In this document: positions 38,075-51,285 of the stretch, piece after piece
How positions within the stretch are numbered: position 1 is the stretch's first letter
Layout of the letters: each line of letters starts with the position of its first letter
Virus record (IMG/VR): IMGVR_UViG_3300020045_012925
From: an uncultured virus (IMG/VR IMGVR_UViG_3300020045_012925)
Taxonomy: Duplodnaviria; Heunggongvirae; Uroviricota; Caudoviricetes
DNA: 64,000 bases
Direction: 5' to 3' (one strand)
The notes under the pieces: generated by a model
Database searches by the model: none
What the model saw: the letters and a program-made list of their open reading frames with translations, nothing else
Told to the model about the DNA's origin: nothing
Made by a program: the position numbers and the translations under genes

Positions 38075-38905
38075 TTAAATTGTTGTTTTACGGTTTAAAT
38101 AAGCTTTTACTAAATCATCCATAGTTATATTTGTAACATATGAATTGTCAAAAACGCGAGACTTTGCCTCAAAGTTTAATTTTTCTGTAAAATAAATTTG
38201 GCGATTTGTACCTTTTACGGTTAATAAATATGCCTCATCGAAATCACAAGCGATTAACTGCCTAAATTGACCATTTACAGCGGGATATCTGGCAACAACT
38301 TCTTGGTCAGAGTTCATTAAAGTATGCAAATGTACAGTTACAGCGACGGCACAGGGGAGTTCTTGGAGTGAACTTGTTAATGTTGTCATCCAGTTTAGGA
38401 GCTGTCCCCAGTGAGCTGGTGCCATGCCGAGTTTCATGTCTAACTTTTTGCCAATCCCAGATGGGGTTACACTGGATTTCTGGCAGATTTCAGCTATTGC
38501 TTTTTGATTAGCGTTAGTTAATGAGTCAAGAACTAATAATCCGTTATTAGATACCAGGTGTTCAAAGAACTCGTTTTTACCATCTTCAGTAAAGGTTTTC
38601 CAGAAATCTGAAAACAACACAGAACTTGATGAAAAGTTATCTATTGTTATGTTTTCCCGATTACCGATTAATTTCTCAATTGTTTTCTCTCCACCTTTAT
38701 CAAACATATAATAATGTATTGGACCATTAGTGTATGTTGATGTGAAGTGAGTTTTACCACTTCCAGAATTTCCGCAAAGTAAGAATTTTAGGTTAAACTT
38801 TCTTGGCTGTTGAGATAATTTGGTTTTATTAAAAGATTTGGGTTCATTTGAATTTGGTGTTTGTTCGGAGTTTTGGGTTGGTTTAATTGCGCTTACAGTT
38901 ACCAT
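38075..38905 (-). CDS. Sak4-like AAA ATPase (ssDNA annealing)
   Basis: GNSGSGKT Walker A, LVLDSLT Walker B, terminal AKSR. Confidence 0.75.
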   Translation of the reverse strand: MVTVSAIKPTQNSEQTPNSNEPKSFNKTKLSQQPRKFNLKFLLCGNSGSGKTHFTSTYTNGPIHYYMFDKGGEKTIEKLIGNRENITIDNFSSSSVLFSDFWKTFTEDGKNEFFEHLVSNNGLLVLDSLTNANQKAIAEICQKSSVTPSGIGKKLDMKLGMAPAHWGQLLNWMTTLTSSLQELPCAVAVTVHLHTLMNSDQEVVARYPAVNGQFRQLIACDFDEAYLLTVKGTNRQIYFTEKLNFEAKSRVFDNSYVTNITMDDLVKAYLNRKTTI

Positions 38906-39307: not shown

Positions 39308-40285
39308 TTATGCAGCTTCTGATAAACGCTTTTTAGTTTCTTCATCAATCAATTCCGGATCCCATTCGGAGAACTTGAATCCCTGGGGAGCTTTGTCAAT
39401 CCATAATAATGGGTTATTCCGGCTTTTGCATAAATCATAATATGCGCAAGTTGTACTGAAGGAAGTACACGAGTAGCCGGGTTTGCGATGAAAAGAATTA
39501 AGAATGTCCGTTCTATTTGTGCATCTTAATTTATCTTCTTCCAATATAATTAGGTTTTTCTGAATATCTGAGATATAATAAACAAGATCAGCCAGGAAAT
39601 GATCTAAGGCTGAAACTCTTTTGTTTACTGTAATAATTTCAAAGCCAATTTTAGTTTTTTGACATAATGCCATTCTATATGTCATAGTAGGTATTTTGTC
39701 ATAGAATAATCTGCCCGCTGTAATATATCCGTCAGTCTGAAATGATTGGGCAAACGTGTCTGGGGTTGTTTTATAAATTGCCTTGCATGTTTTATGGTCA
39801 ATGATTTCAATGCCCGTTCCGTCAGACATGATTAGGTCTTTCTTACCTATATAGCGAGGCAGATTTGGATGGTCATCATCGGAGAGGTTTAGAGCAAATG
39901 GAGCTTCTACAGCGAGAATTGAGCGATTTTGAGTATCTAAGGATAAGAATCTTGTCCAATAATCCTTGTACATGTTTGCTGCATGACCTGGGGATTTTGG
40001 AAAAATAATGTCTTCATTTTTCCATATTGGCTCACCATCGAGTTTCCATAAAGCATTGAAGGCTTTTATAGAATTAATTGTAGCGTCCATTATGGATAAT
40101 GCTGAGGGATCTTTTTGAAGAATTTTATATGTTGATTCAAGCCCGTAATGCCAGCATGAACCAAATACGAGGTGGATAGATGTTCCTGCAGGACGCAGAT
40201 TCATTATGTATTGAAATAAAAATTCGCGCGGACATGACATGTAACAAGCTATTGATGAATAGTCAATCTTTTCATTGTAGTTCAT
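39308..40285 (-). CDS. PD-(D/E)XK Cas4/RecB-like exonuclease
   Basis: SCPR, FGSCWH, VEAPF, GKKDL..IIDHKT, C-terminal Cys cluster. Confidence 0.8.
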   Translation of the reverse strand: MNYNEKIDYSSIACYMSCPREFLFQYIMNLRPAGTSIHLVFGSCWHYGLESTYKILQKDPSALSIMDATINSIKAFNALWKLDGEPIWKNEDIIFPKSPGHAANMYKDYWTRFLSLDTQNRSILAVEAPFALNLSDDDHPNLPRYIGKKDLIMSDGTGIEIIDHKTCKAIYKTTPDTFAQSFQTDGYITAGRLFYDKIPTMTYRMALCQKTKIGFEIITVNKRVSALDHFLADLVYYISDIQKNLIILEEDKLRCTNRTDILNSFHRKPGYSCTSFSTTCAYYDLCKSRNNPLLWIDKAPQGFKFSEWDPELIDEETKKRLSEAA

Positions 40286-40312: not shown

Positions 40313-40389
40313 TGGTAGCCAAAATGAGATTCGAACTCATACTTGTAAGATTTTAAGTCTTATGTCTCTACCAGTTGGACTATTTGGCC
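40313..40389 (-). tRNA. tRNA-Leu (UAA anticodon), CCA encoded, short variable loop
   Basis: GGCCAAA/TTTGGCT acceptor, anticodon arm TAAGA-CTTAAAA-TCTTA, T arm ATGAG-TTCGAAT-CTCAT, ACCA end; 77 nt. Confidence 0.92.
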
Positions 40390-40395
40390 AGATTA

Positions 40396-40638
40396 ATTGT
40401 TAGACTTCTTACACGTGACCTTTTTTAATTACCGTTTCTGCTCGTCTCACTTTACAATACTTTACTTTTTTAATGGGCATATTAAAAAGTTTTTTCTTGC
40501 AAGTCAGGGGTGCTAAATCTGTTTGCATTGACGATGCTCAATTCCACGAACCAATATTACTTTTATTCCTGCATTTTCATGCCCTAACAGAATATTTCAT
40601 AAAGGAAAAAAAGGCCACTCGGTAAAAAGTCTAACAAT
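40396..40638 (-). ncRNA. Candidate structured non-coding RNA (~243 nt)
   Basis: Ends pair in a ~28-bp interrupted stem with G-U wobbles on the minus strand; three nested internal helices. Confidence 0.5.
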
Positions 40639-40731
40639 ATTAAATTGTGCTGGCAAAGGTTAATTGAGTATGCGAAATTCAATTAGATATTTAATATTGC
40701 CAGCACAAAACATAATTAGAAAGTTAAAAGA

Positions 40732-41094
40732 TTAGGCATTGTTAAAATTTGCCAGAATCTGTGCGCGAAGTTCAGGCGGCAGATTGCCAAGCAATTCCAA
40801 TGCTTTTTCTTCGGGTGACTTTGTTACTCGCAAAGTAGGTTTCCAATCGGAATAATCTTCAGCTAAAATTGTTTCGTCGGTAAATTCAAAATCCCCGTTG
40901 TCGTCCTTTTTTTCAAGCTTTGTACGAATTGGTGCGCGAAATGCAACTTTCAGGCCGTTCTGGACAATGTTTAGAACATGCTCTTCCCCAAGGGCTTCGA
41001 CAATATCTGCCAAAGATGTCAAGTTAAGAATTTCAGGCTGTTCTACACGAATTGTTCTGTCAACTTTGTTAGCTTTAACTTCGATTGTACTCAT
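40732..41094 (-). CDS. Hypothetical protein (probably highly expressed)
   Basis: Start MSTIEV at 41094 with AGGAG RBS downstream of a consensus promoter. Confidence 0.6.
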   Translation of the reverse strand: MSTIEVKANKVDRTIRVEQPEILNLTSLADIVEALGEEHVLNIVQNGLKVAFRAPIRTKLEKKDDNGDFEFTDETILAEDYSDWKPTLRVTKSPEEKALELLGNLPPELRAQILANFNNA

Positions 41095-41227
41095 GATGTT
41101 TTCTCCTAATGTTTTTACATGTAAAATGGCGTTATGCCTACCGGGGTTATAATGTCCGGCGAATTGTGGGTCTATAAAAAGGATGCCGGCTTTTTGTGCC
41201 TTGTGCCGTTTTGTGCCGACATTAACC

Positions 41228-41256
41228 GTTATACTAAAAACAAACGGGCTTGTCAA
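41228..41256 (-). promoter_or_regulatory. Sigma70-type promoter
   Basis: TTGACA-17 bp-TATAAC with T-rich UP region. Confidence 0.75.
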
Positions 41257-48416: not shown

Positions 48417-48500
48417 TTTTTATTCCCCCTTGGATTATAAAAAATATTTGTATGACGTATAAAAATAGGTTTGTATGACGTAAACACCTATCATGTTTAC

Positions 48501-48529
48501 CGTATACCACAACAAAACCGGCCTGTCAA
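48501..48529 (-). promoter_or_regulatory. Sigma70-type promoter followed by two TATGACGTA boxes
   Basis: TTGACA-17 bp-TATACG with TG extension; boxes at 48451-59 and 48474-82. Confidence 0.65.
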
Positions 48530-48534
48530 GCGAA

Positions 48535-48601
48535 AAATTCATGCCCGCCGTTTTATTTTTACCTAACTTAATACAGTTCAAATAATAAACGGGCACGAAT
48601 T
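48535..48601 (-). terminator. Terminator-like hairpin
   Basis: Minus strand AATTCGTGCCCG...CGGGCATGAATT followed by TTT. Confidence 0.55.
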
Positions 48602-51000: not shown

Positions 51001-51285
51001 AAAGGCAAAAATGCCGGGTATGTAATTATGACGTAATAATTAGGGGGGGTGCCTTTTATATAACGTATGACGTATACATATAACTCTAACTTAGTTATCT
51101 CTCTAACTATATATATATATATTAGAGTAGAGTAGAGTTTTAAGTTATCTCTCTATCTAACTATATATATATAATAATAAACACTAATCTATTAAGACCA
51201 CCCCCTATATTAAAAAATCACCCCCCCTGAAAAGGGTACCCCCTCAATTATTACGTCATAATTGGTACACGCAGGTTTTTGATTT
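51001..51285. repeat. ~55-bp imperfect inverted repeats enclosing (TA)n tracts: candidate origin or terminus
   Basis: Perfect 18-bp core AATTATGACGTAATAATT 51024-41 / 51246-63; internal AGTTATCTCTCTA..ACTATATATATATA twice. Confidence 0.75.

Follow-up and report, generated by a model that had tools for sequence, protein, structure and literature searches.

The minus strand of an uncultured tailed phage carries, at positions 40396-40638 of the window analysed here (the whole 64,000-nt stretch of IMG/VR record IMGVR_UViG_3300020045_012925), a 243-nt element that is probably an RNA: an optional, stem-closed module in a variable slot for small RNAs. We put the chance that it serves the phage as an accessory small RNA, one module of a larger RNA cassette, at about even. 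A preliminary description of this DNA had presented the element as a rod-shaped structured RNA released from the 5' side of a tRNA, and had overlooked that near-identical strains lack it.

Genomic setting of the element

The window represents most of a tailed phage genome of ~65 kb, whose plus strand encodes terminase, head and tail proteins and lysozyme and whose minus strand encodes polymerase, primase, NAD ligase, ThyX, Sak4, exonuclease and helicase. Judged by the exonuclease, the closest named phage shares just 29% identity. The sequencing runs that contain the stretch are wastewater and sludge metagenomes from 8 studies, with at most 0.51 of its words present in any of them. One contig of this phage family (L177) is binned in a Bacteroidales MAG, which represents either a host link or a binning artefact.

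The slot is 446 nt long in the window and lies between a conserved 120-aa ORF (40732-41094, minus strand) and the gene of a PD-(D/E)XK exonuclease (39308-40285, minus strand), with a Sak4-like annealase gene (38075-38905) farther on past the exonuclease. The 120-aa ORF has 28 homologues; it matched neither Pfam nor PHROG, and the Atlas gives only unnamed viral clusters for it. Within the slot the order is hairpin H (40645-40708, minus strand; 64 nt with a 12-bp closing stem and an 11-nt apical loop), the element, and a tRNA-Leu(UAA) gene with encoded CCA (40313-40389, minus strand). As originally described, the 3' end of the element stands 6 nt from G1 of this tRNA (40389-40313 in the direction of transcription).

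Upstream of the 120-aa ORF a promoter-like site, TTGACA-17-TATAAC (41228-41256, minus strand), was read by eye; it fails the promoter scan's rule for the last T and is absent from the scan list. The terminator scan found no minus-strand site between this promoter-like site (41256-41228) and the tRNA, and the two observations together therefore imply one early transcript. Another promoter-like site, at 40656-40628 across the 5' edge of the element, was set aside, 11 sites having been found where 13 were expected. The 5' leader of the 120-aa ORF (41095-41227, minus strand) is richer in GC and contains the word GGCACAA repeatedly, and its promoter-like site resembles another at ~48496-48538. A second inverted repeat of the window, at 51024-51263, is 240 nt long, with 34-nt arms of 85% identity around TA-rich direct repeats and a DNA fold z of -6.1; it is situated near a switch from minus- to plus-strand genes, and by position could be origin-like or packaging-related.

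Predicted fold

On the minus strand the terminal arms of the element pair as had been claimed, forming 17 bp, a 3x2 internal loop and a further 12 bp. In this 29-pair closing helix, positions 40638-40622 pair with 40412-40396 and 40618-40607 with 40426-40415, so that folding and pair probabilities place its 5' strand at 40607-40638 and its 3' strand at 40396-40426 (both minus strand). Most of these pairs have a probability of ~1.0, the lowest value being 0.6 for the outermost pair. With a minimum free energy (MFE) of -62.9 kcal/mol, the whole element is more stable than its shuffled versions (z -4.26, 0 of 200 as good), and its plus strand folds equally well (z -4.23). The interior at 40427-40606 is no more stable than shuffles in the sense (z +0.68, 152/200 as good) or the antisense direction (z -0.36), and the sub-interval 40473-40583 has a z of +0.73; hence the whole folding signal resides in the terminal inverted repeat.

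The inner helices of the preliminary description fared unevenly. TTCTGTT/AGCAGAA (helix H2; 5' strand 40586-40592, minus strand, pairing with 40442-40436) has moderate support, with pair probabilities of 0.55-0.73, and the apical ATTGA/TCAAT hairpin is weak (0.29-0.40), whereas GGGCAT/ATGCCC (0.01) and TGCAGG/CTTGCA (0.00) do not form in the predicted ensemble. A forced rod reached -59.2 against -62.9 for the MFE structure. The element has no stable inner arm, and for this reason neither the rod with bubbles nor the comparison with 6S RNA finds support. In the folding model a clamp encloses a loose A-rich loop, a shape different from the bubbled rod. The earlier argument that the non-Watson-Crick positions, being G·U on the minus strand only, favour an RNA carries little weight for the element alone: the closing helix contains only 2 G·U pairs and the plus-strand z is equal.

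In the accessible text of PMC8876501, 6S RNA is drawn as ~200 nt with a terminal closing stem, a central bubble and an internal arm capped by a loop. A phage-borne 6S-like RNA, mimicking an open promoter and holding host RNA polymerase, would share with the element the length near 200 nt and the long closing stem (243 nt and 29 pairs), and the same text notes that 6S sequences are poorly conserved (PMC8876501). The element, however, lacks the internal helical arm and any defined central bubble, and no 6S model matched it even at E<=10, which makes this reading highly improbable.

Rfam searches agreed with the first impression that no known family is present, the tRNA being the only match at the gathering score. 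At E<=10 no match fell within the element; one weak match to a miRNA family covered the upstream hairpin and touched the first 9 nt of the element. Readings as a CRISPR-repeat mimic, SRP RNA, RNase P RNA or an intron were dropped, no such Rfam model having matched at E<=10.

Empty allele and the nature of the indel

Contigs from two studies, one of DNA run X1 (depth 120) and one of RNA run X16 (depth 8.35), join position 40389 to 40637, so there are near-identical phages without exactly the element and its linker. The X1 empty-site contig differs from the window at 2 of 283 letters and at 2 of 149. The present/absent unit measures 247 nt (40390-40636, minus strand) and consists of a TG...CA element at 40636-40398 and an 8-nt A/T tail, with a joint that may sit 1 nt further on; G1 of the tRNA forms one edge of the indel. 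The window's own allele is absent from the contigs of the 4 runs examined, out of 20 that contain the stretch, and among the 4 RNA run X18 is uninformative, with 15/30 bins covered overall and no cover over the element. The absence from near-identical strains thus identifies the element as an accessory module, and leaves room for a MITE-like origin.

The empty allele retains the left linker whole. Since slippage at the shared 6-nt repeat would retain the right linker, insertion or recombinational exchange would explain the indel better than deletion of a palindrome.

An inserted DNA element would have these properties as well. According to the available part of PMC11602168, MITEs are 50-800 bp long, encode no transposase, end in inverted repeats of 10-15 bp or more, show a target-site duplication of 2-10 bp when compared with the empty site, have several copies with different flanks or an autonomous partner that shares their ends, and occur in phages. 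The element agrees in repeat length, absence of a transposase and size, and like prokaryotic MITEs it is short and non-coding, has terminal inverted repeats and is matched by a clean empty site. It could accordingly be a MITE, or what remains of an IS: a DNA element unable to move by itself, with imperfect terminal inverted repeats of 29-32 bp, which a host transposase moved into a tolerant A/T linker before the tRNA, with the RNA fold as a by-product. A folding signal that lies entirely in the ends and is strand-symmetric would be expected of such a remnant. TG...CA ends mark several IS families, and the unit here, TG...CA plus 8 nt, has a tail that agrees at 6/8 positions with the 8 nt on the other side.

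This duplication is nevertheless imperfect although the empty-site contigs are nearly identical to the window, and 9% of the A/T-rich 8-mers of the slot match equally well. The element is present in the window as a single copy. Its arm pattern had no match in genomes of 185,579 species, a collection that may not include the host, and viral contigs held no paired partner for it. Its interior blocks are conserved in diverged variants (see below), and the neighbouring modules of the slot are gained and lost likewise and are RNAs. On balance we regard a MITE origin as unlikely, though a serious contender; if true, the phage would simply have captured a host element, a finding of small importance whose main use would be to mark the host.

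Diverged variants and coding potential

Two diverged variants were recovered. A 216-nt contig of RNA run X20 (depth 2.5) spans ~40407-40629 and lies wholly inside the element, its ends corresponding to element positions 10 and 232, 9 and 11 nt short of the ends. It matches 40522-40629 with 14 differing letters and 7 single-base gaps, all of them in 40567-40594, so that 40522-40566 is ungapped. A purine-rich 3' block (40420-40453, minus strand), 27 nt of which lie outside the closing helix, is identical at 34/34 positions, whereas the adjoining variable A-rich block (40454-40521, minus strand) is replaced by 65 other letters. Of the 3' strand of the closing helix, 40420-40426 recurs in this contig together with 40407-40418, to which its final 12 letters were matched by eye. 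The net length change is -3 in each of two segments. The position of the contig inside the element offers a weak hint of a discrete RNA: it is a single record from a library that may hold DNA, the other X20 contigs are similar in size, at 168-230 nt, and RNA ends cannot be read from contigs.

The second variant, a 314-nt contig of DNA run X1 (depth 18), aligned to 40521-40570 only. By eye its 30-letter loose ends resemble the window on both sides, and they retain five H2 pairs but not the TGCAGG/CTTGCA helix. The contig aligned to neither flank of the element and may thus lie in another context, which would suit a MITE. The interior block at 40521-40570 (minus strand), which holds the weak ATTGA/TCAAT hairpin, is kept in both variants. 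Across the two variants conservation is thus patchy, and it extends past the inverted repeats to blocks of the interior.

The conserved interior also bears on a purely cis-acting function, in which the 29-pair helix would serve as an RNase III site or a barrier to decay, either tuning the early transcript or setting free its inner ~200 nt. RNase III requires about two helical turns; the closing helix is long enough and contains an internal loop, and it has a strong promoter-like site on one side and the recombination genes on the other. A cis-acting stem, however, needs no 180-nt interior with conserved blocks, strains without the element are abundant (depth 120 in X1), and the ends of the X20 contig, which are not RNA ends, show no 2-nt 3' overhang. 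We consider a processing or stability stem to be quite unlikely.

The longest ORF noted previously, of 23 aa on the minus strand, does exist, but as the C-terminal part of a 39-aa sense ORF that begins at 40528; there is also a 50-aa ORF on the plus strand (40473-40625). Neither the 39-aa nor the 50-aa ORF has a clear ribosome-binding site upstream. Exact look-up retrieved no homologue of either, nor did a protein search with the 50-aa ORF or tblastn of phages with the 39-aa ORF. One of these ORFs could in principle be a small-peptide gene locked in a long hairpin, comparable to type I toxin mRNAs, and the two net changes of -3 in the X20 variant would agree with a reading frame. The single-base gaps are scattered, however, and cause local frameshifts, and in this variant unalignable sequence takes the place of 68 nt of the sense ORF; together with the missing ribosome-binding sites and homologues, this renders a peptide gene the least credible of the readings considered here.

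The slot in related phages

For comparison, 131 exonuclease loci were gathered through alignments of both flanking proteins. With the window they gave 132 sequences, which resolved into 66 distinct slots (the window included), 39 duplicates and 27 sequences without a flanking gene. The slots range from 75 to 1444 nt in length. At least one of ten recurring motifs occurs in 41/66 slots, in 22 different combinations, and module content differs in five of the seven pairs whose exonuclease genes are at least 93% identical.

The most frequent structures are module A and tRNA-like shells. Module A is a multi-stem RNA of ~80-120 nt present in 21/66 slots (e.g. L019:3382-3467), and it covaries, with two-sided changes at 8 of 21 predicted pairs among 8 aligned copies. 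Rfam returned only tRNA matches on 20 loci, and none for module A in the loci scanned. tRNA-Leu-like shells were found in 18/66 slots (L111:3259-3464, L009:2944-3133, L031, L036, L030 and others) and retain acceptor, D and T arms; unrelated sequence stands in place of the anticodon and variable region, and against phage records the T arm alone matches. Canonical tRNAs are present in 2/66 slots.

Long stems are concentrated in the slots, with 52 stems of at least 11 Watson-Crick pairs in 15,371 nt of slot versus 6 in an equal length of exonuclease gene. Single non-Watson-Crick positions in the slot stems comprise 16 G·U, 2 C·A and 9 others. Without the window the ratio of G·U to C·A is 14 versus 2 (p=0.002), a tally that comes from related and hence not independent sequences and that covers the slot as a whole, not the element alone. 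Taken as a whole, the slot is selected for as RNA of the sense strand. Other slot modules (L009, L013, L006, L052, L086, L085) likewise have long closing stems, which span 110-167 nt, and a closing stem with a payload is a common design here. In some relatives the slot contains only a terminator-like hairpin, and read-through is therefore not universal.

The loop region of hairpin H is common to L005:3405-3467 and L006:2912-2981, where the closing stems differ in sequence, a pattern as would be expected of an antisense or decoy loop. A search with the loop pattern returned 49 viral loci, which by eye are chance matches without the closing stem.

Several other slot contents deserve mention. Motif F (L012 slot 96-137, L089, L100, L086), ~45 nt long and located directly 5' of tRNA shells, looks by eye like a small pseudoknot and is possibly a ribozyme; Rfam had no match for it in the three of its loci that were scanned. 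Motif G (L044 slot 12-90; L105 slot from 222) has two T-arm-like loops. The slots of L066 and L049 hold stem-closed loops whose pyrimidine runs could, by eye, pair with a ribosome-binding site, a possible antisense design. Two slots contain ORFs, one of 80 aa at L001:4720-4962 (same record as L107) that by eye has a motif like that of acyl carrier protein, and one of 166 aa in L116 (slot 80-580) that by eye is HNH endonuclease-like. tRNA-like genes with odd anticodon arms are also found downstream of the exonuclease (L012:6755-6849, L089:6784-6870, L029:4746-4846), where a second slot of such genes may exist.

Homologue searches and comparison with known systems

No full-length homologue of the element was found in any collection searched. 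Blastn and nhmmer against the related loci gave nothing real, the best match in 37 related virus records covered 19 nt (E 0.006), phage and plasmid records held no homologue, and in one MAG the only match, 20 nt of T/A-rich sequence, was due to chance. Of the pattern scans, three on viral contigs returned 13, 4 and 4 matches, none extending, and two on genomes returned 0. Compared with nine other slot rods, the best score of the element was reached by 9 of 200 shuffles, and compared with 65 slots by 1 of 60, in both cases no more than multiple testing gives. Within the window the longest match elsewhere is 13 nt (64/100 shuffles as long). Literature titles and abstract openings, a level of text that cannot exclude an existing account, held nothing describing the element or the slot.

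The preliminary description had also likened the element to a protein-sponge RNA. Csr/Rsm sponge sRNAs are defined by many ANGGA motifs in loops; the element contains 0 ANGGA and does not belong to this class, and GGA is not enriched (2 versus 2.05 expected). The word AAAGT occurs four times, which 68/1000 shuffles equalled, and tests for phage-internal targets were negative within the window.

In phage T4, RNAC and RNAD sit in the tRNA cluster and are co-processed with tRNAs. The accessible part of PMC9697503 lists them as small phage non-coding RNAs without known function. The element resembles this loose class of tRNA-linked phage RNAs in that it is encoded on the same strand next to a tRNA and has no conserved ORF. 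It differs from RNAC and RNAD by its absence in close strains, its long clamp and its unstructured interior, and blastn matched its sequence to none of the phage records. If functional at all, the element would by analogy act like the tRNA-linked phage RNAs without known function.

GOLLD and ROOL are described, in the available text of bioRxiv 10.1101/2024.12.08.627333, as phage and prophage non-coding RNAs of unknown function that are often near tRNA islands. They are large (many GOLLD RNAs exceed 800 nt), have ornate covarying structures and are represented in Rfam, whereas the element is only 243 nt long, its interior does not fold stably, and no Rfam model matches it. It belongs to none of the catalogued families tested.

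That single RNA units come and go within a phage array has a precedent in UG27 systems, in whose reverse-transcriptase ncRNA arrays related loci differ by single units, as far as the accessible text goes (bioRxiv 10.64898/2026.09.22.753630). The likeness lies in a variable phage array with single RNA units gained or lost. According to the same text, however, UG27 units share one fold beside the reverse transcriptase, whereas the slot modules here are unlike each other, and no reverse transcriptase was found among 49 window proteins scanned. The part of PMC10690425 available to us reports tRNA-like candidates in phages, and slot modules may be among its 10,006 candidates; five contig ids were absent from 6 of its supplements.

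Proposed release and role

Relatives carry structured RNAs in the slot, and the terminator scan gave no site ahead of the tRNA; the context therefore fits co-transcription with the tRNA and release by RNase P, as had been proposed for a non-coding RNA at this position. Under the accessory small RNA reading, an early transcript from ~41256 would run through the 120-aa gene, hairpin H, the element and tRNA-Leu. Cleavage by RNase P at G1 is an established step of tRNA maturation, and the host enzyme would cut here as well. A single-strand nuclease may then cut the A/U linker at 40644-40639, and 3' trimming would halt at the closing helix, leaving a ~243-nt RNA with its ends clamped against decay.

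The working part of this RNA would be the loose interior, in which the blocks 40521-40570 and 40420-40453 are kept and the sequence between them changes. Its likeliest job, at the level of a guess, would be to act as a decoy that binds an RNA-binding or defence protein of the host, because early phage functions that are optional and vary between strains often serve counter-defence; base-pairing to a host RNA would be the second choice. The element would be gained and lost by recombination in a slot that adjoins the phage's own exonuclease and Sak4 genes.

Strains with and without the element co-occur in wastewater and are otherwise little different, and a comparison of the two alleles could test the role of a tRNA-linked phage RNA. 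The slot itself, with the covarying module A and the tRNA shells, represents a stronger lead than the element: across the family it holds at least ten recurring motifs, one of which covaries clearly and has no Rfam model, and 18 tRNA shells. Tentatively, and as a speculation that we would not yet favour, the phage family may keep a plug-in bay of swappable small RNAs at the head of its recombination operon. Its modules would consist of a clamping stem or a tRNA shell with an exchangeable payload and would be swapped as other phages swap anti-defence proteins. In that case the element, freed by the host's tRNA maturation enzymes, would act as an RNA decoy for a defence or RNA-binding protein of the host, and at 243 nt it would represent the largest stem-clamped payload among the slots examined.
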